Origin: Obrimoposthia wandeli
Taxonomy: Eukaryota
Assembly (NCBI GenBank): GCA_977020255.1
Contig: CDROCS010000103.1
Span: 620,001 to 684,000 of the forward strand
Length of the DNA: 64,000 bases
Reading direction: 5' to 3'
Positions 9,680-58,559 of the stretch are shown here, in pieces; position 1 is the stretch's first letter; each line of letters begins with the position of its first letter. The notes beneath the pieces were generated by a model. It was not told the DNA's origin and did no database searches. It saw only the letters and a program-made list of their open reading frames with translations. A program made the position numbers and the translations under genes.

Positions 9680-12281
9680 GCAGCTTCATCCGACAACAGC
9701 ATATCAAATTAAGATCATTTGCGTTGACCCATTCTCCTATATATTTTAACCATTTTCACCCACCTTTAAACTCGTTCCATAATATTTGCTTATGTGGTAC
9801 TGCAACATCATTCTAGTTTGTTGTAGAAGAAACCTGAGAATATTCTTTTCTGCTTATATTTAAGATAATTGAAACTTTCAAATATTTTAATTTCAATAAT
9901 TCAAATTATACTTTTTTATACATTTAAATATCAAGTTATTATAATATAATTTAAAATGTTTAATGTAAAAATGTAGATAGGGGAATATTTTTAGATGGCA
10001 CTGACATTGATTATAGAAATTAATTTAAAATTTATTCAATATAAACCAAAATCCAGTTTTCCAATATGGCGACCATTTAAAACTTGTATTTTCTTTCATC
10101 CCTGAACCGAATGATCAAGCTCTGAAATAAACACGTCTTTGATGAAGAAATGCCATTCAAGATATCGAAATCTTAAATATACCGTGGTAATTAATATTCC
10201 AATCATTGAACTTTTACAGCTGATATTTCGTGCCAACTTTATTCACTTCTAAAATTCAGGACCTGTCACAGATGAAGGCATATATCAAAATGAACAATAA
10301 ATCATTAATAATTCAGAGAATAATAAAGCTGCAGCTGGTCCGAATAACTGTCTGAGTTTTCTTTTGGTTTGCTCCATTTGCATATCTTGGGCTACGTCGC
10401 GAAAAATCCCGAAATTAATGGAATATATTATATAATTAAAATATTTAAATTTCTATATTCGTAACTGAACTCCGTATATTTGCAAAAAATTGTACTCATG
10501 CAAAACAAATGGTTAATTAAAATTAATTATTTCTAAAATCAGCATTAGATTCCAAAGACAAGCCTCATATACTCATTCTACAAAAGACATTCTTAAGTTG
10601 TGTGAAATACTTTTAGCAAATTTTGAAAAATTCTTTTTTCACATGAAAATCGAAAATTATTACGATCCATAACTTTTAATACGTGTTTAAAAATATTGAA
10701 GAATAAATGTGTAAATAATCTTAGCAATACATCGGTTGGTTGAGATTTGTTTATTGTTTATTTTTACTTATTCTTATTTAGTTTAGAGTAAAATTTCAAA
10801 TAATTAAAGTTTTACTATCTTTATTGTTTTTCTGTTATTTAATATTTCTTCTTCTTAATAAATTCAATTTATAACATCACAGTAGAATGTTTTTTAATAT
10901 ATTACTTAGATGAATACTAGACGACGTAATGGCTTATCAGGAGAGATATACGCATCTAAAAACTGACAAGGAATAAATCAATGATTAACCGATTTTTAGC
11001 AAATCCAACATCATATGACAACAGAAAATTCAATGAGGCCATCAAAATTGCCAGCAAGGGACAATGGAAATAATGTATTAGAAGCAAGAAAGGGAAATTG
11101 CAGTGCAGATCATATAAAAACCATGAAAAGAAGCCCCAATAGACGACTGCTAATGTTTGTTTCATGAGCTTGTTGGATCAGAGTGATGCAGCGGCATATG
11201 TAATATTCAATCAACTAAACGCTAATAGGCAAATAATAAAGAATGAACTTTGAAATATTTTTATTCAGAAATTTTCCAAGGAATGGGTTTGAGCAAACTT
11301 CAATCGACGGCATGTATCAGTACATAATAAACGAGTCGGTTATTGTGTTCCGAAATGATTATATTTGAAATATATGTTTAACAAATGTCTTATTTTCTTT
11401 TCTTATACATTGAAGGAAATTAATATACTTTGCATTATTTTTACACTTGCACCACAGAGGCAAAGGGTTTGTGTAACAAATTTCCTAACAATGGTTAAGA
11501 AAGTAAAATAATTTTTAAACGATATTATAATGAACATCTTTATGTGGCTTTAAACTCGATGCAAAAGACAGTGATTGGGTTTCTGTATGTCATATTTCCC
11601 TCTCAAATAACGACACGCTACCTTCTTGGGGTTCTGACCACGTGCAAAGAACGTGTTCTAAGAAGATGAATATCTTGAAGTCTTAAAGGTGACTTCAAAG
11701 GTCCAACTAAAATAAACAATGATTTATTGATGGCTTCTTGCCGGTTTAGAAATACTTGATGAAACAAAAAGTCATCATACGGTAGCAGAGAATATTATGA
11801 TTTTTGTAATAGAAATTGCGTTATTAAAACTCAAAAGTCTCAAATCATATGCAATAAAAGCTCAGTACATTGATCGACTGCAGAAAAAATATGAAAACAT
11901 TTGTAAAATAACGTCTTATTTAAAAGTAAGTTAAAAAAAGAAGCAACTTTGTAACATGCCATAATAATAAGTGAACAGTTCAGCGAAGATAACATTCAAA
12001 TTTACTCATATTTCCGCATCAAAGATTACATTAACGTTTTACTCAATTTTCTCCAACTCCTCTCTTAAACCTGTCTTCATAAATTGACCTAGTCTGTCAT
12101 GACTGTGGGGGCTCTATGAGATTTCCAGTTTTAAGAGGTCTAAAATGGGGTTAAATAGTATTTTGTGGTGGGCAAAGTAGAGGGGTAGTTAAAAAACAGT
12201 TGTACATTACTTTATAAAATTCTCAAAATACAATATAGTTATTTAGTGGCAGTGATATGGTACACACGAGGATAAATTGAT

Positions 12282-27937: not shown

Positions 27938-30601
27938 TCATATGAAATAATATTCACATTTTGAAGTATCAAATGCTCGACAATATTGATTTGCCAGTTT
28001 CCTTCGTAAATCTTGAGTTCTTTGGGAAGGTGATGATTTGAGTATTTGGGTCGATTTCTTACATTCACCCAAAGAGCTGGTAATTTGGAATTTGCGACTC
28101 TTTGGCTCATATTTCTGAATGGTGAAAGAATAACATATACATTTCTGAGAGATAATTTTATTGATCAGCTTCTGGGTGGAGATTGAGTTAACAAAGTGGC
28201 AGAAAAGAACATTAATTCCATGGAAATTTTGCGCTTCTACTGTGGTAGCGGTGGCAGGTGGTCCGGCAACTTGATCCTGTATCACGAACTCGATACGGCA
28301 GCCCACTGGACAGCGTTCCTGAACCGAGAGGAGAGTGTTGAGCTGGAGAAATTGCGACTGGAACCGGCAAAGGTTGATCTGAGCGCGAACCACAGCAAAG
28401 CATGGGCAGTAACTACGCGTCTTGGATTGGAACAAGAAGGTAGGCTGTTTGTCTTCGATCCAAAAGAAGTTACTGGTGAAGATGGAAAACACGCAGCGGT
28501 GACAATGGAGTGCCTCTAGTGTGTACAGATTATCCGTATTGTTTTCCAGTCGCTGGAAGGTGCTCGGCGTGACGAAGCAGGCCTGTACGATGTTGCTGAT
28601 GGCCAACTGTCTGCAGTGTGGCCTGTGGACTAGCGGATAGAGAACCTGATTGACGAGGAGCAGCACTACACCGGCCACAAGAAGACAGCTGACAGCCGAC
28701 ACGATGAGAACATTGAGTCGCACCACCTCACAGGATTCCACACGGTGGCCATGGAAACCCGAAAGAAGAGCAACGGTGCGATAGAGTTCAACTGCTTCTG
28801 AAATCTTCTCGCTAATGTCGTCGTGGATCAGAATGGTATAGTTTGGAACGAGCTTGCCTATTCGTACAGCGTGTTTCAGCAGCTGCTTGAATCTAGTCAT
28901 TGCAATGGCAGTTGTAGTTCGTTTATTGTAGTAGCCCAGGAATGCAACGGATATGGATAATCTGTTGTAGCTGGCTGTGTCAGCCTGATCCTCGAATTTG
29001 AAGCCCTTTGCTGCATATATTTGGCCACCGTCCGACACTAAAAAGTTGTATGGGAATGCATAGCTGTTCTCTAACCTGCGAATTTGATCGGAACAAGAAA
29101 TCTCGGTGTAACAACTGCAAGCCGGATGCGCGGTCGCCGTAACGATGACATACTTGGTTGGAGTCTTTGAGAAACGTTTATCGAGTGATGGTGATGGAAG
29201 TGGTAAGTAGGAATCACGGGGAAAGATCTGGAAGTTTTTGAGGACTTCTTCCTCGTAGGGGTAGGCATCATAGATATCACAATCATTGGCTAGTGGAAAG
29301 TTGGCCTCTGTGACATTGATAAGCACGAAGTTCTCATAACCGCTGCTCACCATCAACCAGTCAAGAGTTCTCCACTGGCCTTGGCCCCACTGCTCCGTTC
29401 CATTGCTGTCCAGAATCTTCACGATCCGGAAACTCTGAGTTGTTTGACAGTGATACACGATATCATACGCGATCACAGGCTTGGTATGTGAATCAATGTC
29501 GTGGCAATTCGCAGCATTGGTCCAATTTCCCACAATCCTGCCACATTTGACAGCGATAATCCACACATTCTGGTTAGACGCTAATTTCCTGCACTGTCCA
29601 ACTTGGAATGTTGGAATGGGTTTGACAACAGAATCACTAGAAGAACTGCTACAGAAAATCCAGGTGTAGACGTAATATGTGTACAATGAAATATTGCAAT
29701 CATTGTCGATATATAGTTCCCCACAAATCGAATTATTGGTCGCTACTAATATGCATTTGGAACCTTTCTTGGAGTACAAGGCTCTTTGACAGTCAGTGTG
29801 AAGTTGGCAACTCTCCAGACAATCTTCGTACTGATTGGTGTAGAAGTTTATTACAATTTTGAACCCATATTTTGGTAATGGGATGGACTGATTTGAAATT
29901 CGCCAGAAACCGGCAGAGTGACCTTTACGGGAAAAGCATTTGTTGCTTGGCTTTGGCAACTTGTAGTTAGGGGAACAGTGCCAATAGAAAGCTGTCCAAT
30001 GCAGATTCCGTCTGTAGACTAATTTGTCAACGGGAAACTGCAATATCAGCTCACAATCTCTCTTATTGTTTGAGCTTTGTTTGATATCAAGGACGTTGAT
30101 AGCACCACAAGATGGAGTTTGCAGACAAAGTTCCATGCATGAAGCTTGGCCCCAGACTTTCAGAGATTTCAGAGGTAAACTAAGCATTTTGTTGGAGAAC
30201 TTATAGTTGAATCGTTTGGTCCAAAACCCCGGACAACGGTTATTTCCGGTTGGCTGGTAACTCGAATTGGAGTTGCAGCACTTCCACACGGATATGCTGT
30301 CAGCGTTTTGTATCGACATGTAGTCTCTGGAGCTGTACAAACGACATATTTTGGCATGGTTGCTCCACACAGACATCACACATGAGTCGTTAATATTACA
30401 CTGATTTACACAGAGTTTGTTTGATGTCAAATTACAGCTCGTGATGAGCTTGGCCATTGGTTTTGGGTGGCCTGTTATTGTCAATTTGTAACCGGGACAT
30501 TTATTCAAGTTTATGATCTCACATACATAGCTATTCTTGGAATTCTGACACTGCGCTGTTGTCAGAATAACGATGAGTACAACCACAATGGACTGAAGCA
30601 T
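27938..30601 (-). CDS. 887-aa predicted type I membrane protein: signal peptide, 3 PAN/apple domains, non-catalytic PGRP (amidase_2 fold) domain, TM helix, Cys-containing tail
   Basis: Uninterrupted 2.66-kb ORF. Hydrophobic N-terminus; three C...C.....C....C.L modules (~30440-29700); PGRP motifs KYVIVTAT, PYNFLVSDGGQIY, YNRLSISVAFLG, GKLVPNYTILIH (~29230-28750); hydrophobic LNVLIVSAVSCLLVAGVVLLLV (~28720-28650). Confidence 0.85.
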   Translation of the reverse strand: MLQSIVVVLIVILTTAQCQNSKNSYVCEIINLNKCPGYKLTITGHPKPMAKLITSCNLTSNKLCVNQCNINDSCVMSVWSNHAKICRLYSSRDYMSIQNADSISVWKCCNSNSSYQPTGNNRCPGFWTKRFNYKFSNKMLSLPLKSLKVWGQASCMELCLQTPSCGAINVLDIKQSSNNKRDCELILQFPVDKLVYRRNLHWTAFYWHCSPNYKLPKPSNKCFSRKGHSAGFWRISNQSIPLPKYGFKIVINFYTNQYEDCLESCQLHTDCQRALYSKKGSKCILVATNNSICGELYIDNDCNISLYTYYVYTWIFCSSSSSDSVVKPIPTFQVGQCRKLASNQNVWIIAVKCGRIVGNWTNAANCHDIDSHTKPVIAYDIVYHCQTTQSFRIVKILDSNGTEQWGQGQWRTLDWLMVSSGYENFVLINVTEANFPLANDCDIYDAYPYEEEVLKNFQIFPRDSYLPLPSPSLDKRFSKTPTKYVIVTATAHPACSCYTEISCSDQIRRLENSYAFPYNFLVSDGGQIYAAKGFKFEDQADTASYNRLSISVAFLGYYNKRTTTAIAMTRFKQLLKHAVRIGKLVPNYTILIHDDISEKISEAVELYRTVALLSGFHGHRVESCEVVRLNVLIVSAVSCLLVAGVVLLLVNQVLYPLVHRPHCRQLAISNIVQACFVTPSTFQRLENNTDNLYTLEALHCHRCVFSIFTSNFFWIEDKQPTFLFQSKTRSYCPCFAVVRAQINLCRFQSQFLQLNTLLSVQERCPVGCRIEFVIQDQVAGPPATATTVEAQNFHGINVLFCHFVNSISTQKLINKIISQKCICYSFTIQKYEPKSRKFQITSSLGECKKSTQILKSSPSQRTQDLRRKLANQYCRAFDTSKCEYYFI

Positions 30602-31639
30602 TTGATCGTTTCTTTGTGTTTTTGAGAAGAACTCGAATCAATTCTCTCGCACTTTTCGTCAGGTTGACAATTAACTTGGACTAAGCAATCAATATTTATA
30701 ACATTCATTAAGCTATTCAAATACACACTTAAATTCAAGCTTGTACAATTATAAATTCTACTGCCATTCATTTGTCACCGACTGCATAGTAAAATGTGTG
30801 TCTCATCTTCCAACAAAATCGTCAATATCGACCTTGATTGAAATGTTTAAGTCCAAATCATTTGCACAATTGTGATAAACAAAGGGTTCATTATACTTGA
30901 ACCATCCACAGCATACACATTAATAGAGACTGGGTGCAAATGTATTTCTATAATATTTTTATCGAACAATAATAATAATAATCTGTTTTCTGAGTTTATA
31001 TGAAATAAAATAACGTTATAACTATCAACACATTCTTTATAGACAAAAACTACATATTGAAATCAACATTTGTTTTCCTTGTATACCAAAAACAGCTCAT
31101 TGCATTTTCTTTCTCTATATTGTGTTATATTCTTCTGCCAATTGATGAAGTATCCATCTGTTGCGCAAATGCATTTTCCTCATTGTCATTTAATTTTTTG
31201 TCATTTAATTGAGTTGTACATTAATACAGTCTCAAGACAGATTTGAATTTAATTGACAAAGTACCTATTACCCATGGTTTATCGTCAGGATCAAATATCC
31301 CTTCCATGAACTTAGGTGTCCATCGTCTGAGCCTTGTATCTGTCAAGGTATCTCTAGTCATTGTTCCTTTCTGATATAATTACAATTATTGTATCTGAGA
31401 ACTTTCTTCCATAAAAAATAAATTATCGTATTTTTCGGCATACAAGTTACTACTGTTTTCCTAAAAATATTTGGGTGCAGCATATATATGTGTGAACGAA
31501 GTCCTTTAAATGATCGAAGCTTATAAGCGAAAAAAATAATGCAAAAAAATAAAACTTGAGAATGATTGATAGATTTATATTAATTTTATAATATCAATTA
31601 TACAATAACAGCACTGCGTTAATTTGGACTTCCAGAGAA

Positions 31640-43626: not shown

Positions 43627-44313
43627 ATGTAATTTCATAATATCATCTTCAAACTTAAGTGAATAACATTTACAAAGTAAGAAAGTCTATTCTTTATACA
43701 TTCTTTTCGTTTCAACGACTAAGTTACAACGGAATTAATAGAAAATTAGTAAAAATATTAATTTATTTGAATATTTGAATGAGAGTTTGAATAAATGAGA
43801 GGTAGAATGAATGTAAATGAATAAAATTATGCATGTGTTGGGGTTTCTATACGAAACTTGGTATAGAGCCTCTTGAGTGCGGAGGGCCCCAACGTGAGTT
43901 CGATTAGAAGCAGGTCTTAAAGTTGGTCGTGGCCTACTTAGTGTTATGGTTGCCTAATCTCTTGTACTATCTGAAGGTATTTGATTTGATGTCTCTTAGT
44001 CTGAAGGGTGTAAAACAACTTGTTCTAATGTAGGAAATTGTTTATTTGTAATTCACGTAACTAACACAACAATACGTTTATGTACGTATTTCTAAAAAGT
44101 ATGATAAAATTCCTAAAGGACTTCTGTAAGTCTCTACAAGAAGTGGGGATGAACCACGTATCGATTTTACGTTCAGGTGATTAAGCTTTTAGGTTTGTTC
44201 TTCTTACTTAGGTTGGTTAATCTATAACGCAACTCTCTTAAATTTCTTCGCTCCTACTTCTTATCTCTAGATAAAGTTTCTTGGTTCCTTAACTCTATCT
44301 GTGTGTGTTTGAC

Positions 44314-44749
44314 CCGAATTGTCCACTGTGAACAATGGGTCTCCTAAAAACCTAATTGTCAAGATGACAATGAAAAACTTACTCCTAATTGTCAACTACG
44401 GACAATGAACGAACCGAATTGTCAGCTAGGGACAATGAGTCTTACCGAATTGTCTACTAGGGACAATGAGTATTTATCCGAATTGTCAACTAGGGACAAT
44501 GAATGAACCTAATTGTCAGCTAGGGACAATGAATCTTACGGGTAAAAAGTCTGGGTGTGATTCCTAATTGTCGCTGGGGACAATGAATAAATGTCAGATC
44601 TTAATTACCAACTAGGGGCAATGATTTTGTTAAAGAGTCGGATTGTCCTAATTGCCAGCTAGGGGCAATGAATCTGTGTATTAGTTTAAAATTTAGAATT
44701 ACCAACAAGGGGTAATGACAGTATCCTAATTGCCAACTAGGGGCAATGA
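44314..44749. repeat. Array of 12 ~25-bp palindromic units (6-bp arms, mostly 7-nt loop) with variable 5-30 bp spacers
   Basis: Consensus CCKAATTGYC-ARCTAGG-GRCAATGA; units at about 44314, 44351, 44384, 44414, 44445, 44478, 44508, 44563, 44600, 44647, 44694, 44725. Confidence 0.95.
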
Positions 44750-44891
44750 ATAGTTTAGTTGGTGTTCTTACCAGTTACGGCAACTAGTGGGACGTCCGAT
44801 GCAGGATCCGTAGATCTTTCGGAATCTTCTTCGAAACAGAGCTTATTACTTGTGGGAGGTTGAGTACACGCTTGAATATACTTTGACTTTG

Positions 44892-45463
44892 AATTATCTC
44901 CACTGACTTGAACCTTTAATACAATCAATTATCTCCACTGACTTGAACCTTTAATACAATCAATTAGCTCCACTGACTTGAACTTTTAATACAATCAATT
45001 ATCTCCACTGACTTGAACCTTTAATACAATCAATTATCTCCACTGACTTGAACTTTTACCTTTAATACAATCAATTATCTCCACTGACTTGAACTTTTAA
45101 TACAATCAATTATCTCCACTGACTTGAACCTTTAATACAATCAATTATCTCCACTGACTTGAACTTTTACCTTTAATACAATCAATTATCTCCACTGACT
45201 TGAACTTTTAATACAATCAATTATCTCCACTGACTTGAACCTTTAATACAATCAATTATCTCCACTGACTTGAACTTTTAATACAATCAATTATCTCCAC
45301 TGACTTGAACCTTTAATACAATCAATTATCTCCACTGACTTGAACTTTTACCTTTAATACAATCAATTATCTCCACTGACTTGAACTTTTAATACAATCA
45401 ATTATCTCCACTGACTTGAACTTTTAATACAATCAATTATCTCCACTGACTTGAACTTTTAAT
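44892..45463. repeat. 35/41-bp satellite, 16 copies, with a ~111-bp higher-order unit
   Basis: AATTATCTCCACTGACTTGAAC(C/T)TTTAATACAATC; 41-bp variants at units 5, 8 and 13. Confidence 0.96.
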
Positions 45464-45534
45464 GGACACTTGGCTTTTTGGACACGAGAACTTAATTGTT
45501 CGATTTGTGGTCAGGGAGTTGAATCCCGTATTTG

Positions 45535-45565
45535 TGATTTGGGTTTCTCCTGTCTGCCTTATATA
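45535..45565 (-). promoter_or_regulatory. Candidate LTR core promoter (TATA box plus initiator)
   Basis: Minus-strand TATATAA at 45565-45559 and TCA initiator with A at 45535, 30 nt downstream, oriented like the element's ORFs. Confidence 0.55.
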
Positions 45566-46255
45566 GAGGCACTGTACGTCAATCAATTGACAGCTGCTAA
45601 CGATTTGGTTCGGAAGATATCGGAGAGGCAAGGACTGGAATGTCAATCAATTGACAGCTGAAATTGAAATTTAGTTTACTGCACGAAAATGTGCTTACCT
45701 CTTGAAATCCTTGATTGACGTTTTTAATTAACCGTTTAATTTTCTGACTTTCTCCTTAATTAATTTTTTGTAACAATTGTCCTTTTTGGGTTAATTAATT
45801 TAACTTTTATACATTTTCGCATAATACACGACCTTCGTGGTCCTCCTAATTTTTACCCTAAATTCCACTAATTTTAATTTTAAAACTTAAATTAATATTT
45901 TAATTTAATTTTCAACCTTGCTTTCAAGGATTTTTATTTTAGTATTTAATCGACTAAAATATTTAAATTTCTTAATTCTCAATCCTAACATACCTCGGGG
46001 GTTTCAAAAAAGTTACGTCCCCGGAACGTATCGATTTTACTTAAATAAGCCTTTGGCTGTTGATTTTAGGTTCATCCCTACAAAATCAATCATTCAACTT
46101 CAACAAACATGCCCAAAAAAAAATTTTCCAAAATCCCGGTTTTTAGTGGGAAACATAATATATAATTTGGAGCAAGTCTCAAACCATACATTATTACTTA
46201 TAACAACTAAAAATTTACACAAAGGAAAGGTTCAAGGGTGATTGTCAGGGATATG

Positions 46256-46759
46256 TTAATTGTTCCTGTCTCGCAAGAATAGCAAGACCTGCTCCAGTGG
46301 TAGTTCTGGATACGATGGTGGGCCGCCATCGTACAGTATCATCTGCTGGCGCATGGTGAGGTGTTGACTCGGGTGGAAAATAGTTGTATATCGCCCGTGT
46401 ATTCCGCGATTTCTGAGCCATATTTGACGGCCACGCTGCCATGAGCGGGGGTCGCGAGTTGACCGGTATTTCTCGCGGAGGACGAGTTTCGCATCGCGAC
46501 GGCGCGCGATACAGTCGGGGCAATGGCAGTGCTCGCCACCAATACAGCTGGTGAGCGAATGGGTGCCCTTGTGGCGCCCTCGACACTGTAGTGTCCATTC
46601 CGCGAAGGGAGTACGGCAAAAGGGGCAATTGACATGTCCTTCGGGTCGAAGTCGGGCCCAAGTATATAGGCAGGATTCGTGGAATTTGTGACGGCAGCCG
46701 ACAGGGGATGCTGATACCGCCCAAATTTTCTCCATGCATACAGCGCACTTCATCTGCAT
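46256..46759 (-). CDS. RING-H2 protein 3 (167 aa) with extra Cys cluster and C-terminal PPSY motif
   Basis: CAVC...CRHKFHESC...CPFC (C3H2C3); SC...HCHCPDC; PPSY near the C-terminus; intact ORF. Confidence 0.88.
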   Translation of the reverse strand: MQMKCAVCMEKIWAVSASPVGCRHKFHESCLYTWARLRPEGHVNCPFCRTPFAEWTLQCRGRHKGTHSLTSCIGGEHCHCPDCIARRRDAKLVLREKYRSTRDPRSWQRGRQIWLRNRGIHGRYTTIFHPSQHLTMRQQMILYDGGPPSYPELPLEQVLLFLRDRNN

Positions 46760-47092
46760 AAGAAAATAACTCCTTTCAATTTGGGGTTCACCGTTCTCAT
46801 CGTTAATTTAAATTTTATTTCAAAACGAATCCTTAGTTATCTAATCCTATCGAGTTTTGTTTCGATTTTAGGCATGTTTACGCATTCACACTAAGCATAA
46901 AAATTGTCTTTTTAGAAATTCAGTATAATAATTACAATTTCAGTTAAACATCATACATAAAAATGGTAATGGTCAATTTACAGTTCACAAGATTATATAA
47001 TTATGATTACAATTATGGTAGCTAATTTATCGCGGTATGCGATACACAGGGTAGTTCATGATGTCACGTTCAAGTCAGAAAGTTACCTTCGA

Positions 47093-47398
47093 TTATTGTT
47101 GGGGATTGGGCTGGCCTGTGCTTCGCTCCTCCACGCAGAACGAGCACCAGCAATCGCAGATTGTTTTCCAGCAGTGTACGATGGGTACCACTGCTTGGAG
47201 GCTGTCTTGGTTGTACACGTAGTGTACTGAGAAGGTCGCTCTGCACATCGGGCAGGTTGGGAAGTCGAGGGGATTGTTGCTGTTGGCAATGGGGATCCAC
47301 GTCTCGAGGCATTCGACGTGGAAGAGGTGGTCGCAGTTGTTGGGCTTGGTGTAGAAGTCCACAATGCTCTCGTAGCAGATGGAACATTCTCCAGACAT
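47093..47398 (-). CDS. RING-H2 protein 2 (101 aa)
   Basis: CSIC...CDHLFHVEC...CPMC plus HCWKTICDCWCSFC; intact ORF. Confidence 0.9.
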   Translation of the reverse strand: MSGECSICYESIVDFYTKPNNCDHLFHVECLETWIPIANSNNPLDFPTCPMCRATFSVHYVYNQDSLQAVVPIVHCWKTICDCWCSFCVEERSTGQPNPQQ

Positions 47399-47458
47399 TA
47401 CTGTGGGAGGGTTGATGTTGAATTTGGGCTCGATTGAGGACTGGTGGTTGTGTGATGT

Positions 47459-47758
47459 TTACACAAAAGTGGTCTGATTTTGTCGATCTGACAAACAGTA
47501 ATAACACCAACACTCTCCGAAATTCTTCCAACAGAATACCACCTGTACATATACATCCTCTTGGTTGGGTTCTAACATGATGAATCTTGCGAATTGTCTT
47601 CTGCATACGGGGCAACAAGGGTATGTTGGATGTCCAAACTGTCCATAAGTTCTGATCCATGTCGATAAACATTCCTCGTGGTGTAAATGGTTGCAGGTTT
47701 CGGGTCTTGTTCTTCGTTCGGTTAGATCTTCCAAACATATTGGGCATTCTTCGGCCAT
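47459..47758 (-). CDS. RING-H2 protein 1 (99 aa)
   Basis: CPIC...CNHLHHEEC...CPVC plus FCWKNFGECWCYYC; clear paralog of RING 2. Confidence 0.9.
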   Translation of the reverse strand: MAEECPICLEDLTERRTRPETCNHLHHEECLSTWIRTYGQFGHPTYPCCPVCRRQFARFIMLEPNQEDVYVQVVFCWKNFGECWCYYCLSDRQNQTTFV

Positions 47759-47866
47759 TCTAAATACATGATGATGATTAATTTCTACATGAGTTTTATA
47801 TACTTCTACTATTTGTACAATCGCTTCTAGATATTTCTACATATTTCACACACTAATTTATCTACA

Positions 47867-47881: not shown

Positions 47882-50752
47882 TCATATCTTGATGGGAGGC
47901 GGAGGTAAGTCTAATTCCACTTCCTCCATGATGGGTGTGTCACAGCATCGCAATCCTTCGCATTTTCGTCGTATTCCTGGGCATACTTGACTGCCTTTTA
48001 CGCACACGATTGTCAATAAAACCACTGCTGTTGACACTACGGCCATTCCAATTAGGGCATTGACCGCTGTTATTCCGCTGTCTGATGATTTATAATCATA
48101 CTTCATTTTGTTGTTTGTTGGTTCGAATGACATTTCCATGGGTTTTGATCGGTTTCCATGTATTATGTCCGATTTTCTAAAAATTCGGGGATTTGGGTGT
48201 TTTGTTTCTGATGGAACAGGTATTATTATTTTGGATTGGAAATGATGTTTGGGATCTAGTGGGATCGTTCCCCTCACTCTTGTCCTCTTAATAATTGTAC
48301 TTTGGTTTCTGGACTTGGACTCTTTTTCTTTCGCTTCTGTCTTTGTTCTGATCACTGTCGGTTTTTCGGAATGTCGTTTACTTTCGTTTACTTTTGCCTT
48401 CTTTTTGACTAGGATTGGTCTTTTGGGAATGATTTTCCTGGGTTTGATACTTATACCGTATCTACGAAATCGACGGTTCTGGTATCTTAGAGTTATGTAG
48501 AATATTTCACCTGTTATTATCATGATTATGGTCGAGGTCTCTGTAGAATTACTGGCAATTCGATTACACAGACATTCTGTGTTAAAATGTGGTACTAACA
48601 TTTGGCTTTGGATTTCGAATCTGATTCCGCCATCTGGGTTGGGACACATTACTGTCACGCTGTCGGTTTCTAGCAATCTGAAAAATATCCTAACGGAATT
48701 CCATACGGCTTTGCGTCGTCTACCTGTGATCATAATCCTGTCGACAATTTTCCAGATGCGCTCATCTCTAGGCAATATTAATGACTTTGTTCGGATACTT
48801 TGGATAATCCGCTTCCTCTTTGATATTGTTATCCGTAGGTATAACACTCTTTCATGATACAATAATATTAAATTGTAATCGGGTGTATTTTGGTCGATTT
48901 TTATTCTGACCTGTCGGATGACATACAACTTCTGATCGATATTGTCAGTTGCTGACGTCTGTAGATGAATGTCTACTACGTGATCTGTTTTTAGTAGTGG
49001 AATTTCTATGTATACTGCCCGTATTACGTCTTGTCTCCATTTACTGATCATGATCTCATAACTAGCCTTGGTAGTGGTGATTTGTACGATCAGCATGATT
49101 CCTATGATCGTTCGATTCCTAAACTCAGGAACTTCAATGAAACAAGTCAAATTACTCATATAGTACGGTCTTTCCTCAATATGTTCATATATCGTTGGCT
49201 GGTACTCTGGTGCTGGTTCATCTAGAAATGGTGGTCTTGGTATAATTGTGTTGAATTTTTGTAAGTTCATTTGACCTGTTCGTCTTGCGAGATCATGCCT
49301 TTTCTTTTTTGATCTCAACTCTAACTTTGTACAACAAAACAAGATGAGTAATATTAATATTATAAATCCAATGATCAGTGCGAGTATTGGATTAACCAAT
49401 TCTAGAATACCGTAACGTACTGCTGGTATTCCTTTACTCTTGATGGTTAATATTTTAAATTTGTGTGCACTTTGGTTGGACATGTCACTGAGAAGCACTA
49501 TTTTAGTTTGTCCAAATATGTAGTCTTCACATGTGACAACACTAACTCCATAATGTCCATTAAGTGTTATCATTTCGGTCGCTGGGACTATACACATTCG
49601 TCCTGGACATCCTTTTACACACATGATCATCACGGCTCTACTGTGGGATGTCTTGATTATTTCCAGGGTGTTGTCTAGATTTCTCAAGTGTAAATTATAT
49701 TCGGATAGTGTCATCAATTCGGCTTTACTGGTTGGCATGGCTTGCAGTACCAATCCAATTACTACTCCATAAATCAATCCTTGTGCAACGGTGCACAGGG
49801 CCTTGACTGACCTTTTGCAAAGGGTTTTAATTATCAATCGTTTGAGAGATATCTGTTTCTGATTGGTTCGTTTTGTTGTCTGTCGTTGTTTTGACATCTC
49901 CTCGATTCCATCTCTTCCGATAATCAACTGTACCGGTTTACCTTGTATCGTCAACTTTCCGAATCCATTTTTGGCGGACAAGCATGTTTTATGTCCTTCC
50001 CTTGTTTCAATTATCACTCTCTTACTTCCATACTCACGTGTTTTGATGACATCGCCGTTGAATATATACGTTGGTCCTTTTGTATCAGCATCTTTTTGTA
50101 TTTCCTTTACAACTCGTTTTCTCCGCTTGCATCCGGCGAATGTTGTTGATATTCGGTCAAGTGTGTGCTGTCGGTCAGCTTCATAATATATTCGAAATTG
50201 ATTCAGTATTCTGTTTTGTGGGTAAAATATCGCTTCATTTACTATGTTGTCTTCGATCCTTTCGTCTAGATACACAAGCACTTTGTTCGTTGGTCCATTT
50301 GGTCTTTTCATCTTTACAAACTGAAATCTTTTACTGTCGGTTCTCATAGATCGAAGACATTTTCGGATGATCCATACATCAATTAGTCCTAACAACACTA
50401 ATAGCATCATTAGTGCCGGTGTATGGTACTGTATGGTGTAGTTGTGGATTTCGTTGAACCAGGAACTATTTCCGTGGTTGGAGCCTATCTCCTGTGCTCC
50501 CGTTATCGGCATTAGACAACTTAACAAGCCTATTGCTAACAATCTTTGGTATTGAAAGCTGGGCACTGTTGTTGTAGCTTCATTTGTTTCTCGTTGTTGC
50601 TTCCTCTTTTCGGTGTATTTTTCTATTTCTCGAACGAGTAACGGTTTGAATTCCGTATTTGGTCTATTCTGTTTGATGTAGACCATCGCTTCTTCTGGCG
50701 TGTGACCATGGTACTCTACCAACAAGGATACACCTATGGTAGGCGCTAACAT
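47882..50752 (-). CDS. 956-aa terminal reading frame: end of pseudo-DUSP, then three signal-peptide/ectodomain/TM units
   Basis: Open frame with alternating signal-like (LLAIGLLSCLMPITGA, GLIYGVVIGLVLQAMPTSKA, TIIGIMLIVQITTTKA) and TM-like (ALMMLLVLLGLIDVWII, PILALIIGFIILLILILFCC, ALIGMAVVSTAVVLLTIVCV) segments. Confidence 0.78.
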   Translation of the reverse strand: MLAPTIGVSLLVEYHGHTPEEAMVYIKQNRPNTEFKPLLVREIEKYTEKRKQQRETNEATTTVPSFQYQRLLAIGLLSCLMPITGAQEIGSNHGNSSWFNEIHNYTIQYHTPALMMLLVLLGLIDVWIIRKCLRSMRTDSKRFQFVKMKRPNGPTNKVLVYLDERIEDNIVNEAIFYPQNRILNQFRIYYEADRQHTLDRISTTFAGCKRRKRVVKEIQKDADTKGPTYIFNGDVIKTREYGSKRVIIETREGHKTCLSAKNGFGKLTIQGKPVQLIIGRDGIEEMSKQRQTTKRTNQKQISLKRLIIKTLCKRSVKALCTVAQGLIYGVVIGLVLQAMPTSKAELMTLSEYNLHLRNLDNTLEIIKTSHSRAVMIMCVKGCPGRMCIVPATEMITLNGHYGVSVVTCEDYIFGQTKIVLLSDMSNQSAHKFKILTIKSKGIPAVRYGILELVNPILALIIGFIILILLILFCCTKLELRSKKKRHDLARRTGQMNLQKFNTIIPRPPFLDEPAPEYQPTIYEHIEERPYYMSNLTCFIEVPEFRNRTIIGIMLIVQITTTKASYEIMISKWRQDVIRAVYIEIPLLKTDHVVDIHLQTSATDNIDQKLYVIRQVRIKIDQNTPDYNLILLYHERVLYLRITISKRKRIIQSIRTKSLILPRDERIWKIVDRIMITGRRRKAVWNSVRIFFRLLETDSVTVMCPNPDGGIRFEIQSQMLVPHFNTECLCNRIASNSTETSTIIMIITGEIFYITLRYQNRRFRRYGISIKPRKIIPKRPILVKKKAKVNESKRHSEKPTVIRTKTEAKEKESKSRNQSTIIKRTRVRGTIPLDPKHHFQSKIIIPVPSETKHPNPRIFRKSDIIHGNRSKPMEMSFEPTNNKMKYDYKSSDSGITAVNALIGMAVVSTAVVLLTIVCVKGSQVCPGIRRKCEGLRCCDTPIMEEVELDLPPPPIKI

Positions 50753-51060
50753 CGTACCTTTTTCTGATATATCAGAACGCCGTTTCCTTCTGTGACTTCA
50801 GCTTGGATGGTTTGAGTCAATTTCGTCAGATGTTGTTGTGCATCGTTTATTTCTCGATTGGAAGCATGTATGTATCGAGTGGTGTCGTCTTCAGTATTTT
50901 GACACAGACTAATTATCTCGTTTCCGACTTCAACAATGTTGATTACTCGGTTGATACTATGGAACTTCAATCCAGCAGTATCTATATCTCCTGGATGACA
51001 TAAAAATACTTTTGGCATTATCTGTGTAATTTTATCGACTCCGGCTAAAAATAACCCGGT
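50610..51060 (-). other. Degenerate second dual-specificity phosphatase domain (pseudophosphatase)
   Basis: ITQIMPKVFL, INRVINI, GNGVLIY, TIGVSLLVEYHGHTPEEAMVYIKQNRP parallel the first DUSP, but the P-loop reads YQKKGTMLA (no Cys/Arg) across a frameshift in an A5 run at ~50760. Confidence 0.7.
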
Positions 51061-51149
51061 CAATGATAATGCTTGGAGGAAATTCTTTTCCTTTGGATCC
51101 TCAGGAATGTCGTCCATCCGTCTTTGTTCTTGCAACAGAAGTTGGTAAT

Positions 51150-51548
51150 TTGCCAACTGTCCCAAAAATTAAGATTTGGGTTTGCAATACTTCTTCTCTC
51201 CTGTAGGTATTTTAGCGCTTCTAGTACCTGCATTCGTCTAGTCTTTATTAGGTATGCTAATACTAGAGTTGCTGATCGAGAAATTCCTTTCTGGCAATGT
51301 ACTAACACTTTTCCTTGGTTCCGGAGTTCTCTGTGAAGTATTTCGTTTGTTTCTACAAACCATTCAAGAAGATTAGCGTCCATTGAGTCTTTTACTCTTA
51401 ATGTCATAGCTCTGATCGTCTGATATTGCGATTTGTGATTCATTGTAACGTTGATCACATATGTTATCCCTTGTTCCAACAGTTTCTTTTCATCTGTTGC
51501 ATCCTCCACATTTCCGAGGTATAACTTACCTGGAATGATCTCACTCAT
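51150..51548 (-). CDS. Dual-specificity protein phosphatase domain fused downstream of integrase
   Basis: SEIIPGKLYLG, GITYVINVT, VKD (general-acid loop), VLVHCQKGISRSATLVLAYL (HCxxGxSRS at 51299-51273), RRSIANPNLNF. Confidence 0.95.
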
Positions 51549-52059
51549 TGGTGGCGTTAATTCTGACTCTTCAAGTTTTAGTCTTTCTAATCTCTTCTCT
51601 ATCTGTTCGTCGATGTTGGATAGTTTCGCCAGTTTCTTTCCTCTCAGCATTCGTATTGCTGGAGAGATATTCATCTTTGTCTCTGATGTCTGTTCCTTTG
51701 TTGAGTCTTCTTCCGACTCGGTCTCTTCTGCAGATTTAATTCGTCTTTCTTGTATATTCTGTTTCACGAATTCTATATTTTGTCTTTTTCTGCTCTCTTT
51801 AGCGAATTCAACCTCCATGGTTCTTCCGAATCGCTCTATTATGTTATCTTCGGATTCTGTTGATTCTGTATCGTTACTTTCCGGTTCACTGTCTTCACTA
51901 GACTCGCTCGAAGGGTATTCTGGTATGTCTGTCTGAACTGAAATTAATGAAGGGGTTAGAATAATTGGGTTGATTTCCCCTTCGTATTTGTGAATCGGAT
52001 ACGGTATTACACTATCTTTAAGTATCTCAACTTGGAACTGTGCTCCATAGCACATGACA

Positions 52060-52985
52060 ATTGTTTCTAATTTACCCATGATGGACAATCCATCGAAATA
52101 GGTAACATTCAGCTTAGATATCGGTGTCTTCGCATAATTAATTAAGTTTACTCGTATCTCGGTTGATGACGGCCATCGATTTTTTAGTAAAATTATAATT
52201 TCGTCGTTTATCGATGTAATTACACTTGGTGCGGATGATACTATTTCAGCATGATATTTTGGCTGGATTGAGTTGGTCACTTGTTCTCGGATCATATTGA
52301 TTCTTTGTGGCTTTTTATTTTTAGCTTCCCACTTCCGGTATCCGCTGTCAATGCGTAATTCTGCCGTTGCTTTGATGATTTTATTGTTAGTCACTTCCGG
52401 ATGGGTTGGCGAATGGAATCCTTCTATTACGCTCAACCTTACAGATACTTCCGTTTGGTCTGTATCTAACCGGTGAGATTCTGGTATACAACATACAATT
52501 GTCTTTCCATCAAAGTATTTGGTGTCCATCTGACAAATTATCTTTTCAGTGTCAGCGTCAATTAAATGGACTCTCATGATATCTCTTTTCCCATGTGAAT
52601 TACGTAATACCATTATTACATCGTGGTATTCTTGTTTGAGTCTTTTTGGTGTACCATGCAGTATGTGACCACCGGCCGGTTCTTTTTCTTCCTGACTGGC
52701 TAGTCCTGCTTCAGTACTGTCATAGTTCTGCCATGCAACTATGTTTGGTGTCAATGTGATTTCGATTATCACTTTCTCAGTCGTAAACACATTGGAATTT
52801 TGATAAAGTGCTGCGACTAGTGTATTTCCGTCGTAGTATGACACTCTAAGTTCGCACAGAAATTCGTTTGTCAGTGCATCTTTCACAATGACTTCTTTAG
52901 CCACATCTGTCGGTTGTGTTTTTTCGAAAACAACTATTATCTCTTCGTCTTCTTCTAATATCTCTTGTGGTGCGATGTGTCGGAT
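52060..52985 (-). other. Three ~65-aa related beta-rich repeats (possible IPT/TIG-like)
   Basis: Shared pattern I...P....e(I/V)I..L.n....i.V...d....i..l.v.Y(Y/F)DG.t(I/L) at ~52979-52800, 52667-52477 and 52247-52065. Confidence 0.65.
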
Positions 52986-53229
52986 TACTTCCTTTTCCTC
53001 TTGGTACTTCATTCTGAGCATACCAATTCTCGCTGGTTTTTTCTCGCTACCACTCGTCATCGTGTTTATGTAGTTCCGATCACTTATCATTCGTGTAAGT
53101 TTAATGGTATTGGTGTTCGATTTCGATTTCTGTGATCTTAACTCATATCGTGACGCATTATCTTTATTTGGTACTAATTTGCATCGATTTGCATGTACAA
53201 TCATCGGTTCCTTGTTCCGATTCTCTTCG

Positions 53230-54210
53230 TTGATTACTTTCAAATTTGTTGAGGTTGTCTGGATCACTTTGTACGGTCCTTTGTATGGTCTATGAAGTTT
53301 AAACGATAGACCTGGTTCGATGACTGGATAAAATATCATCACTTGATCTCCGACTCTAAATTCATGTGGTTTTGCTTTTTTGTCGTATTGTTCCTTGTAA
53401 CCTTCTTGATTGAATTTCAACTTCAATCCGGCTTTGGTCCAAGCATCTTGTAACCTTTCCTTCATAACGACAATGTATTGTTCAGTTTCTAGGTACTGAG
53501 ATGTTGGCTCGGTCCACTCCAGATCCATTGGCATATTGTTCTGTCTGAGATACATCAGATAGAATGGTGTGTGACCCGTCGCCTCTCGAACTGAATTCCT
53601 GTAAGCATATAAACATGAAGGTAAATATTTATCCCAATCCTCTTGCTTGTCTGAGCAATAGGATTGTACCATCATACATAAAGTTTTATTAAACCTTTCT
53701 ACCAGACCATCTGTCTGTGGGTGATATGGTGAAGTTTGTAACTTCATGATTCCGAATATCTTCGATACTGCTTTTATGACTTCTCCAGTGAAGTTCTTAC
53801 CTTGATCCGTTAACAACTTTCTAGGCACTCCGTATCGAAATATTATCTCTTCCACTAAGATTTGCGCTATTGTTTCAGCTTTCTGGTTCTGCATGGGATA
53901 TGCTTCTACCCATCTCGTCATGTAATCCGTAAATACTATGACATACTTGTTTCCTTTACTTGATTCTCTCAATGGTCCCAATATATCCATCGCTGTGAAT
54001 TCCATTGGTGCCAAGGGAACTGGCATTGGTTTCAACGGAACTTTAGTACGAGTTCCGGTGTCTTTTCTGGTTAAACATACTTTACATTGTTTACACCATT
54101 GTTTTATGTCGTCTTCCATACCATCCCAATGGTACTTCTCTTTGATTCTGGCTATCGTCTTTCGCCCTGACAGATGTCCTCCTAGTGTTCCGTCGTGATA
54201 CTGGATCATC
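53230..54210 (-). CDS. pol: Integrase (HHCC zinc finger, DDE core, GPY/F-type C-terminal module)
   Basis: HDGTLGGH...CKQCKVC, AMDILGPL, TDQGKNF, SPYHPQTDGLVERFN, YKGPYKV; inside the 1309-aa ORF 51060..54989. Confidence 0.97.
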
Positions 54211-54499
54211 ACTGCTGTTTTCAATGACTTCGGAATTACTACTACTATCTTTCCGACGTTATTGACAATATACAAGATTCCTTCTTTTATCAGTATTTTC
54301 TTCGTCATTTCATCGTTTAGATCTCCTTTCACCAACAATTCTTTAATTAGACTCAGTTCTTCATCTTCTTTCTGTTCTTTGATGATCTCTTTGTCTATTT
54401 TACCCGTCTTTAGCAAAATCGTCAGTAGATTTGCTTCTCCTTTTTGATCATTGGTTTCATCTTCTTCTGGAATTATGTTTCCTTTCTCGTCTACATTTG

Positions 54500-55800
54500 T
54501 CAATCTCGATAAACAATCTGCGTTGCCGTTCGACTTTCCGGTTCTATAACGGATTTCTAGATCGAATTCGGCCAATTTTAGAAACCATCTGTTTAATCTA
54601 CTCATCTCATCTCTATGTTTATACAAGAACTGTAGTGGTTTGTGATCTGTATACAGGAATACTTTTTGTCCTAGCAAATAGTGTCTGTACTGTCTACATG
54701 AATACACTATGGCTAGACATTCCTTTTCGATAACAGAGTATCCTCTTTCGGCTCTGTTTAATCCTCTACTCGCATACGCAATGACGTGTTCTCTTCCTTC
54801 GTCATCCTCTTGTCCCAATACTGCTCCTACAGCATAGTTACTTGCATCTGTCATAAGTATGAATTGTCGGTTTATATCTGGAAACGCTAATATCGGTGCT
54901 TTTATCAATCTTTCTTTTAAATGCTCGAACGCTTGTTGGGCTTCTTCTCCCCATATGAACTTCTCATCTTTTCTCGTCAACTTTCTCAATGGTGTTGCTA
55001 TATCTGAAAAATGTTCAACAAATCGTCTATAATAATTCGCAAGACCTAAAAAACTCTGTATCTCCTTAACAGTCTTTGGCGCTAAATGCGCTTTTACTTT
55101 CTCGATCTTTGCTGGATCAGGTCGAATGCCTTCTTTCGATACTATATGTCCTAAAATGTTACTCGCTCTTTAGCCCATTCGCATTTTGTAGGTTTAACTT
55201 TTAATTTAGCGTTTTCCAGTCTTTTAAATACAACTTCAAGATTTTTTAAATGTTCTTCGAACGTTTTCGAAAATATTATTATGTCATCAATATAAACCAT
55301 CGTGTTTGCACGATGCGAGTACAAAATTCATGCAACGCTGAAATGTTGCTGGAGCTCCTGGCAGTCAGTCGAATGGCATCTTTTCGCATTCGTATAATCC
55401 ATCTCCGCAGGAAAAGGCTGTTTTGTGTTTATCCTCTTCCTCTATCTCGATTTGCCAGTATCCACTCTGCAAATCTAATGTTGTAAAATAATCTGAATTA
55501 CCCAATTTATCGAGCATCTCTTCGATTCTAGGTAATGGATACACATCTTTTCTTGTGATCTTGTTCAGTTCTCTGAAATCTATACAGAATCTCATTTTCC
55601 CATCCTTCTTTTTTTACCAACACCACAGGTGCTGAGAATGGCGAAAAACTCGGTCTAATTACTCCTGTTTTAGACATGTCTTCGATCTGACTTTTTACTT
55701 CATCTTGTAATTGTAATGGTACTCGATATGGTCTTCTTCTGACTACTTTGTCTTCTGTCAGTGGTATTGTATGTTTTATGACAGGTGTTTCTCCTATGTC
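54500..55800 (-). pseudogene. pol: Reverse transcriptase and RNase H, frameshifted
   Basis: PYRVP, SPFSAPVVLVKK, RFCIDFRELN, YPLPRI, LDLQSGYWQI, YIDD, LGHIVS, FLGLANYYRRF, TDASNYAVGAVL, EKECLAI, TDHKPL, NADCLSR. Confidence 0.97.
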
Positions 55801-56259: not shown

Positions 56260-56560
56260 ATCAATACTTATCCCTTTAAGTTGTGATAGTACATCCATTC
56301 CTAAAATTGTAGGTTCAGGACATTCTTTCATGATTCTAACTGGTATAGTGATCGTATTACGTCCAATTATAAATGTACATGGTAATATTCCGTCACTTTT
56401 ACAGGGTCTCCATTGACCGATACCAAGAATTCATCTGGTTCTGCCATTGTTCGTTTCTGTTCCTCTGTCAAACAGTCTTCACTTACTATCGAAGCCACAG
56501 CACCTGTATCAATTAAGGCTTTTACTCTTAAATTATTTACTCTAATGATAGCTGCTGGTC
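56260..56560 (-). other. Retroviral-type aspartic protease 2 (adjacent to RT)
   Basis: KALIDTGAVASIV (DTG at 56510-56502) and, after a frameshift, TILGMDVL. Confidence 0.92.
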
Positions 56561-56684
56561 GCTGTGCTCCATTTATGTTTCCCATATGGTATATTGTATT
56601 TATCGAATTATTACACTCTGTCAGTCCACTTCCTATGTTTGGATAGTGAAATCTAATATTTCTCACTTGTCGATCTATTATTCT

Positions 56685-57680
56685 TCGACAAATCGGACAT
56701 GATACCATTTTATTCGCACATCTCCGACATGTTCTTACATGTCCGCATGGTAGAAAAGGCAACTTCTATTTTGTTGACCATGCAAACTGCGCATTCCGGA
56801 TCTTCTAGTACGTATTCTAGTTCATTTATGTACTCTTTTCTCTTTTGTTTCAATTGTACTGTCATCTTTATCTCGCAGTAATTCAAAAAATCGATCCGTA
56901 TCCATTTCGCGTAGTTTTTATTTTTAATTCTACCAATTCTCTGATTCTTTCTGCTTCTTTTGGATATAACCTTCTCACGAATGACACTACCGGTGTGTCT
57001 TGTTGAGCCAAAATCTCTTTCCGTGTGATTTGGTATTCGATTATACATTCGGTTTTTCTGTTCTTTTTTGCTTTATTTTGTTTTTAAAAAGTACAAAATT
57101 CGCAAAATTCATGATGTAAAAATTTTCTTAGGTAGCTCAAGAGTGTATCTGTCGATAATTCATTCTTTTTTACACTTGTGGCAATAAATTAAGTCTTTAC
57201 AATACTTTTTTATAGCAAAAAGTCCCTTTTTTGCCAATTTTTTAAGTCTTGGGTCTTCGAAGGTTATTTCTCGATACTGTTCGTCACATTCGTTCACTTC
57301 TCGCATAACTTCGAATATATCTTCAATTCGACTATTCGTTATTACTCTTCCTGTTATTAGAGCTGATTCTCCTTTTGGAATCCCGTCACTGTAATCGAAA
57401 TCGGGTGCTTTTCCCGTTTGGATTTCTGGTACGTTTGACGTTTTAAGTTTCAAAAGAAATGGACAATTTGGTGCATCTCTTTTATGACGTCTCATTGGGT
57501 TTTCATTCTGTTCCCATTCTCTAAACTTTACTCTACACCATACGCATCGTACTACTATCTCCTGACCATAACTACTTGTCGCGTTTAACATTTCTAGGCC
57601 TGATCTTGCCATTTTACGTGCCATTCCTTTTGAATAGTACTGTTCTAATATATTTCGTCTCTTTCTCTCGAATCTCATAG
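56685..57680 (-). other. IAP-like module: intact BIR, degenerate second BIR, C-terminal RING-HC
   Basis: CVWC-x16-H-x6-C at 57546-57463; LAKKGLF..CHKC..HHEFCEF (frameshifted); CAVC..F/LPCGH..C..CA....CPICR at 56793-56685. Confidence 0.92.
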
Positions 57681-57919
57681 GATCCTTTTCTGACAGATTC
57701 ACGTATGTTATTTTTCTCCTCGTCGTATCTTGTGGTCCGAAATTTACATTTTTGTAGTGAAGTATCGACTTTGCTAGCGCTTCCTGTTTTTTTGTCTGGG
57801 TACGAACTTCCCATACGGAACGTAGTGCATTTTTCCTTTTCGACTATAGGTCCTCTCAACATTTTTATCTCTCTCACTGAACTGTCATTCTTATAACTCT
57901 TGTTGTTTGGTAGTATTAT

Positions 57920-58210
57920 TATTCCTTCAAACATTCGTATTACGTCCATCCCAATCATGACTGGACTACCGCAATCTGTGAATATTCTAGCATTTAACTG
58001 TAATGCTCTTCCATCGATATTCAATGAACATTTCAGTGTTCCTTCCGACACTACATCTGTACCATTCACGTTAACAAATGTCTGTTTTCTAGGACATACT
58101 TCTCTTAATTCTTTTGATGACAAGATTTCTTTACTCAGTACTGATACTGCAGATCCGGTATCAACTTCGGCAAGATATTCTCTTCCGTTCAATGTTACTG
58201 CTACTTGTGG
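57920..58210 (-). other. Retroviral-type aspartic protease 1
   Basis: LAEVDTGSAVSVL (DTG at 58162-58154) and VMIGMDVI. Confidence 0.92.
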
Positions 58211-58559
58211 TGGAGCATTTGGATTCTCATTTGATATTCTAGATTTCAGAATTCTTCTGGAATTATCTTTTGTCTTTTTCCTCTGCTTGTGGAATTTCAC
58301 TGTAGCTTACTTTAGGCCATCTTATCATTAAGATGCCTCTCTTGAACTTTCCTTTTCTTCCTTCAATTCCTTCATTGGATATAAGTTTAACGCCACTTCT
58401 TCCTTGTCTGGTAACGGAATCTTTGGTTTTCCTGGTATCTTTGCATATACTCCTGGACTATCATTATCGTCGTCGTTGTCGTCTCGATAGTTTCTTGGTT
58501 CTCTCATCATGGTTCTCGTTTGGTGTTGTTCCTTCTTGAGGGCTCGCAACTCGTTCTCG

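Follow-up and report, generated by a model that had tools for sequence, protein, structure and literature searches.

RNA control elements carried within LTRs have been described in several retroviral systems. The RxRE of HTLV-1/2 is located in U3/R or R/U5 beside the major splice donor (PMC3504254), LTR export elements such as the HERV-K RcRE and the CTE have been exchanged, lost and replaced between lineages (PMC11379458), and in foamy virus a splice donor in R governs polyadenylation in the 5' versus the 3' LTR through U1 and RNA structure (PMC3694450). The hairpins of TAR, the IRE and HBV epsilon share a pair between loop positions 1 and 5, and pseudo-triloops are defined as hexaloops in the accessible part of that report (PMC1636360). 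Among giant retroelements, planarian Burro is described as a Gypsy element of more than 30 kb that has thousands of copies, encodes a BIR domain and carries, between gag and pol, a fusion protein resembling that of mononegaviruses; the available part of this description mentions tandem repeats and no hairpin array (PMC6431247).

The window analyzed here, a stretch of 64,000 nucleotides from Obrimoposthia wandeli, belongs to an AT-rich genome of 1.35 Gb and contains an envelope-bearing Ty3/Gypsy element of about 23 kb on the minus strand, with a Burro-like gene order. Pfam domains in the minus-strand frames between 46 and 64 kb comprised RNase H, integrase, a phosphatase domain, protease, BIR, RING and a Monjiviricetes-type fusion glycoprotein. 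The 3' part of pol (51060–55169, minus strand) encodes RNase H, integrase and a C-terminal dual-specificity phosphatase domain, and the regions for an aspartyl protease with a BIR domain (56367–58306, minus strand) and for the env-like glycoprotein (PF24664; 58328–60729, minus strand) have broken frames in the window copy. The order with env between gag and pol was also present in 60 other copies, and in one of the other copies gag, which was located upstream of the glycoprotein, encodes a single CCHC knuckle as well as a long low-complexity stretch rich in Arg, Asn and Gly. A single open frame was absent from both copies for which ORFs were listed, and the nearest pol matches were 50–58% identical. 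Three small RING-like ORFs (46256–47836, minus strand; one with a Pfam match) and a 971-aa ORF that contains both hydrophobic and basic stretches and lacks a Pfam match (47882–50797, minus strand) were found 3' of pol, and the polyprotein has two protease-like regions. Elsewhere in the window, an 899-aa intron-less frame (27938–30637, minus strand) carries PAN and Amidase_2 (peptidoglycan recognition-like) domains and has a GC content of 44–47% against a background of 25–30%. Like Burro, the element is giant, is present in thousands of copies, has its fusion glycoprotein gene placed between gag and pol, and encodes a BIR domain; it differs from Burro in its length (about 23 kb versus more than 30 kb) and in the presence of a phosphatase domain and RING genes. 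The Burro modules MATH, BCL2, ankyrin and dUTPase were not detected in the 14 ORFs scanned, a scan limited by the broken frames. Because the element is shorter and several Burro modules were unseen, we call it Burro-like only.

The LTR pairs of this family are spaced about 20–22 kb apart, and a PBS of 19 nt lies 8 nt past the 5' LTR (L002 and L032–L121), with 5363 exact matches in the genome; it resembles what we take to be the 3' end of elongator tRNA-Met. The 3' LTR of the window copy (43836–45990, minus strand) is 2155 bp long and bounded by TG and CA, with ends common to 30 other copies and flanks that are either unrelated or the PBS, so that the hairpin array, as the sequence-only reading had proposed, lies inside an LTR. 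A TATATAA box at 45559–45565 (minus strand) is a putative promoter, and similar boxes recur in many 3' LTRs at LTR positions of about 175 and about 400–480; a second TATA-like box is found at 45806–45811 (minus strand). The window LTR has a single AATAAA past the TATA box, at 44041–44046 (minus strand), and the position of this signal is kept about 210–230 nt before the PBS in most LTRs. With these TATA-like boxes upstream and the one AATAAA downstream, R would be about 1.5 kb long, and the array would probably be part of it, U3 being a possible location as well. Only the last ~340 nt and the first ~300 nt are common to all LTRs, and the conserved terminal block of about 340 nt (43836–44169, minus strand) is shared by LTRs with and without the array. 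The sampled LTRs (L032–L121), of 1.5–3.0 kb, have similar ends, near-identical coding regions beside them, and middles composed of dozens of unrelated tandem repeats. In the window LTR, a 35-nt tandem repeat of 15.8 copies (44892–45463, minus strand) lies between the TATA box and a splice-donor consensus; the repeat at this place differs by subfamily and has no more structure than its composition gives. The 14-mer that opens the terminal block (44156–44169, minus strand) is repeated at 46026–46039, about 45 nt before the 3' LTR, and both copies were present in 27 of 33 3'-LTR loci. The 3' LTR is not preceded by a plain polypurine tract, and a G/C inverted repeat is found there instead.

The array consists of 12 stem-loop units (44318–44747, minus strand) of the sense form C-AUURYC-loop-GRYAAU-U-M-GG, in which the loop is mostly CNNNGYW. 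On the plus strand the units start at 44318, 44355, 44388, 44418, 44449, 44482, 44512, 44567, 44604, 44651, 44698 and 44729, and the loop is 5 nt in the unit at 44355 and 6 nt in that at 44567. The sequence-only reading had placed twelve hairpins with these arm types here, which we confirmed; the mismatches it assigned to units 1 and 9 are in fact U·G and G·U pairs on the minus (sense) strand, where 72 of 72 stem pairs are canonical. Its view that the spacers are unrelated did not hold for the array as a whole, since units 3–7 form a repeat with a 30-nt period at 81% identity and a 63-nt block is duplicated at 92%. These repeats show that the array was born by tandem duplication and diverged later. 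A 21-nt unit pattern with at most one mismatch matched the window 11 times, 10 of them in the array and one at 11046, against 0.01 expected from 100 shuffles. The lone perfect match at 11046–11066 (minus strand) was dismissed as chance; it lies in an old dispersed repeat whose homologues have no unit. An Rfam scan of 43700–46300 gave no match at E ≤ 5, and the unit patterns had no matches in metagenome and viral contigs. No description of the array was found in the literature searched; Repbase/Dfam and Grohme et al. (2018) with its supplements, which lie outside that search, could cover Burro LTR repeats.

As the 30 best-scoring LTR copies were too similar to each other and selected for the array, we based the LTR sample on the PBS and took the first 90 of its 5363 matches in contig order. 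Units were present in 37 of these 90 LTRs, 35 with 10–16 and two with 3–4, and absent from 53. The array subfamilies range from homogeneous tandem arrays with a 34–46 nt period to the diverged 12-unit type of the window, and the genome as a whole holds at least 49,928 units by a pattern slightly stricter than that used for the pair counts below. Unit number was unequal between the two LTRs of one element in L080/L131 (14 versus 25) and L082/L132 (16 versus 14), which indicates either that arrays alter after insertion or that these loci are misassembled. Elements without the array encode near-identical proteins, many of them 90–98% identical in the env and protease segments, and are not significantly older than array-bearing ones, with a median LTR-pair divergence of 1.4% versus 0.7% (p = 0.46; partner LTRs found for 18/20 and 15/20, the 20 array-bearing loci having been chosen partly where a partner was likely). 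The array is thus optional. Array status tracks internal sequence only loosely: nearest-neighbour agreement for the gag region was 0.73–0.78 versus 0.53 after shuffling (three windows), and agreement was equally strong around env. The same loop on other stems was found once in the 53 array-less LTRs and once in the reversed control; this look-alike search covered the LTRs, and a substitute in the middle 5–6 kb of array-less elements is possible. The better folding of the replacement repeats on the sense strand is accounted for by their composition (mean z +0.38). Array-less LTRs (L033, L035, L039, L049 and others) often have one to three hairpins of the AGAGC-AACA-GCTCT type 400–520 nt before the PBS, and a TAGAGT-AAAG-ACTCTA hairpin also occurs there.

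The sequence-only reading had argued from covariation within a single array that pairing, rather than simple slippage, was selected. That argument is weak alone because duplication copies a double change, and the real test lies in the comparison of copies; the conclusion itself stands on other grounds, namely a sense-strand excess of G·U and a formal count of pairs. In the genome-wide pattern counts, one-sided changes at stem pair 4 gave G·U 4537 times and A·C 70 times, and those at stem pair 5 gave U·G 1969 times and C·A 166 times, with reversed-pattern controls of 0–1; most of the 166 C·A cases come from the last unit, which tolerates C·A. Shared descent inflates these counts, and we therefore turned to 29 orthologous arrays, namely the window array and 28 from the sample. 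Diversity was 0.189 in the spacers and 0.045–0.047 in the stems, loops and flanks, an approximately fourfold difference, and the block downstream of the array was equally conserved (0.051). In sense order, units 2, 3, 4, 6 and 7 showed stepwise states, U-A, U·G and C-G at pair 5 and G-C, G·U and A-U at pair 4; there were 40 G·U states in these units, no A·C at pairs 4–5 in units 1–11, and four A·C or C·A states in the last unit. Parsimony gave about two dozen independent changes on a tree that is approximate and arbitrarily rooted, the sequences being recombining. Compensatory change is traditionally described as proceeding through G·U (PMC6961544). Singleton rates outside the units were 18/123 for C>T, 6/97 for G>A, 15/233 for A>G and 16/172 for T>C, so that the relevant transitions differ at most about 2.4-fold, far less than the observed ratios of 65:1 and 12:1, and mutation supply does not explain them. 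When the pairs of the named structure were counted in 10 hand-picked arrays, 99.2% of 720 cells were paired and 15 double changes were found; none of 500 shuffles was as high, in a control that ignores relatedness and in which two other measures were equalled by 10 and 320 of the 500 shuffles. Pairing is confined to single units: mismatches were counted at 7 of 496 positions within units, compared with 22 of 248 and 46 of 248 in registers across neighbours. The excess of G·U on the sense strand and the formal pair count both point to RNA rather than DNA, and very probably the pairing of the sense strand has been under selection, most simply as RNA.

The stem positions differ in what they tolerate. 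Where pair 5 was C-G (87 units), pair 4 was G·U or A-U in 43; where pair 5 was U-A (318 units), pair 4 was G·U in 1. In the genome at large, a search among units with U-A at pair 5 and CCUAG loops turned up no double change at pair 4. The common stems have energies of −2.4 to −5.1 kcal/mol, and the weak ones that are rare or absent −1.1 kcal/mol; shared history may contribute to this epistasis between pairs 4 and 5. Pairs 1–3 hardly vary, and since pair 3 is intolerant of U·G (26 cases genome-wide), the stem base is likely to be read by sequence. Almost no variation was seen in the flanking C and U, in the GG, or at loop positions C1 and G5. Among 357 loops of seven nt, positions 1 and 5 were C-G in 338, U·G in 16, U-A in 2 and C·A in 1, that is, pairable in 356, with two double changes. 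The mid-stem pairs would thus act as a ruler, whereas the base and the loop appear to be sequence-read, a division also characteristic of TAR, the IRE and HBV epsilon. The flanks could extend the hairpin by a short lower stem that has a two-base bulge on its 3' side, which is suggestive only. Isolated units mostly fold as drawn; of four sense units folded one at a time, three did not outperform shuffles. Over the whole array, the equilibrium probability of the local hairpin averaged 0.10 for 219 units with identical neighbours and 0.20 for 200 units with different neighbours, pairing between units being dominant; with such low probabilities, a model built on local hairpins needs co-transcriptional folding or a binder.

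The sequence-only reading missed both the optional nature of the module and a splice-donor consensus at a fixed distance from it. In the window, CTG|GTAAG at 44767–44774 (minus strand) lies 24 nt before the first stem and is a predicted 5' splice donor. Of the 37 array-bearing LTRs, 35 have G|GTRAG at 20–28 nt upstream of the first stem, whatever the unit number, and the 20 nt upstream of the consensus are diverged (information 0.1–0.6 bits), in a comparison of LTRs that share ancestry and with donor letters picked by pattern. The two exceptions are short arrays, 653 and 961 nt from a donor. In array-less LTRs, a donor consensus lay within 120 nt before the unstructured tandem repeat in 21 of 45 scorable cases (chance 0.02–0.10), and the consensus is 4–5 times more frequent on the sense strand of LTRs than on the antisense strand. 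A search for spliced LTRs with one type of exon end returned six genomic matches lacking the donor's first G, and all six were unspliced and explained by small local changes. For L064, four contig sets from one sample cover all 30 bins, and no donor junction was seen among the 15 of 286 joints listed, which is uninformative.

The array resembles RxRE, RcRE and CTE, as known from the available parts of the reports, in being structured RNA inside an LTR, and RxRE-2 in particular lies in R/U5 near the major donor. Each of those elements is a single fold of 226–433 nt that replication requires and whose binder is known, whereas here there are 10–16 separate 19-nt hairpins, the array is optional, and no Rev-like protein was identified. 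As in the described part of the foamy virus system, a donor consensus stands upstream of the poly(A) signal in the LTR with structure adjoining; unlike in that system, about 725 nt separate it from the AATAAA, it takes no part in the pairing of the array, and it is a donor by prediction. The possible C1-G5 pair, the fixed-length upper stem and the conserved unpaired U near the base recall the pseudo-triloops of HBV epsilon, the IRE and HIV-1 TAR, which, in the accessible account, are hexaloops, whereas the array loops are mostly 7 nt. An IRE is defined by a CAGUGH loop on a 5-bp stem with a bulged C beneath; the loop census contained no CAGUGH loop closing a 5-bp stem, there was no Rfam match at E ≤ 5, and an IRE was rejected. 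TAR was rejected as well: the 5' TAR bulge is absent, and the TATA box from which the start site is predicted precedes the first unit by about 820 nt in the window and about 270 nt in L032; the TAR-like activation envisaged by the sequence-only reading is thus unlikely. U1A-type sites, with the motif AUUGCAC, and Musashi sites, with UAG, were dropped because these letters are paired or not conserved, and miRNA precursors because the stems are too short. By analogy, the array would work most like the RNA control elements borne by LTRs, yet, being multi-copy and optional, it is a member of none of these classes.

Judging from these features, we give a probability of about 0.5 to the reading that the array is a multivalent RNA docking array at the adjacent predicted donor and governs the fate of unspliced RNA. 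The 10–16 small stem-loops would act as RNA, as repeated docking sites for one protein, in which pairs 4–5 would form the ruler and need only pair, while the AUU/AAU base, the flanking C, U and GG, and loop C1/G5 with its possible cross-loop pair would be read by sequence. The weak hairpins (about −3 kcal/mol) would fold co-transcriptionally and be held by the binder, either a host factor or an element protein. Placed behind the predicted donor, the array would tune the share of full-length RNA that escapes splicing or premature polyadenylation and leaves the nucleus, the candidate controlled steps being splicing, export or poly(A) choice. As a tentative extension, which we consider doubtful, the LTR may possess an interchangeable RNA-control slot behind its donor, into which the array is one plug-in, comparable to an MS2-like tag of 10–16 sites, with copy number dialing the recruitment of one protein and hence the unspliced, exportable share, and with the stems drifting via G·U in parallel and so avoiding mispairing with neighbours.

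Binding of the hairpins by the element's own Gag is a rather unlikely alternative, in which the array would enhance packaging or assembly and its 5' copy, behind the donor, would mark unspliced RNA as retroviral psi does. The CCHC knuckle and the Arg/Asn/Gly-rich low-complexity region of Gag, the location of the array 3' of the donor consensus and the partial linkage of array status to the gag region are consistent with this, but the linkage is loose and as strong around env, spliced RNAs would carry the 3' LTR copy too, and array-less elements make up more than half of the sample and are not significantly older. An essential packaging signal, in the sense of the packaging role suggested earlier, is therefore unlikely with 53 of 90 LTRs lacking the array. 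It is improbable, too, that the array is a 3'-UTR element, which would have transcription start in the conserved terminal block, place the array in U3 and let it affect stability, localization or translation through a host protein, with the donor unrelated. The terminal block opens with ATCGATA, presumably a DRE-like word, and the restriction of shared sequence to the two LTR ends is typical of a conserved R-U5 with a variable U3; the HERV-K RcRE is likewise located in U3, according to the available part of the report (PMC11379458). Against a start in this block, TATA-like boxes recur upstream across diverged subfamilies, and the donor consensus is sense-enriched and kept at a fixed distance from the array.

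The covariation itself cannot separate hairpins from an in-register duplex, which would meet it equally, and the quasi-palindromic units might pair between two genomes, or between the ends of one genome, in dimerization or strand transfer that needs no protein reader. CUAG or AGCU palindromes in many loops, the inter-unit pairing favoured by the folding models and the cassette-like exchange of LTR middles would all suit such an RNA-RNA zipper, but pairing alone demands neither the rejection of U·G at pair 3 nor the fixed loop C1/G5 and flanks, many loops are non-palindromic (CCUCGUU, CACAGUU, CAAAGUU), and cross-unit registers are more often mismatched, making this reading distinctly improbable. 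Least probable by far is the reading that the units serve as palindromic factor sites (hr-like or HMG-box) in double-stranded DNA, or are unselected repeats produced by slippage, template switching or editing. The units are inverted repeats, their number varies even between the LTRs of one element, and ADAR-type editing could yield U·G from U-A; however, editing explains neither the C>U step at pair 4 nor the epistasis, switching from unit to unit would give A·C chimeras equally often, and the spacers vary four times more than the units. DNA, moreover, gives no reason for a preference of 65:1 and 12:1 for G·T on one strand, and ACAAT is lost in the GGTAAT and GGCAAT arms, both of which disfavour the baculovirus-hr and HMG-box palindromes that had been offered as the alternative.

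We know of no account of how very large env-bearing Gypsy elements get 20-kb unspliced RNA past splicing and early polyadenylation. A docking array of the kind preferred here would offer a handle on this problem: a defined element of 25 nt, whose presence and copy number vary naturally among retrotransposons with the same protein background. Whatever the function, compensatory evolution can be followed stepwise in the roughly 50,000 units of one genome, with intermediates and stability epistasis that are directly countable; to our knowledge, such step-by-step records are rare outside rRNA and tRNA.
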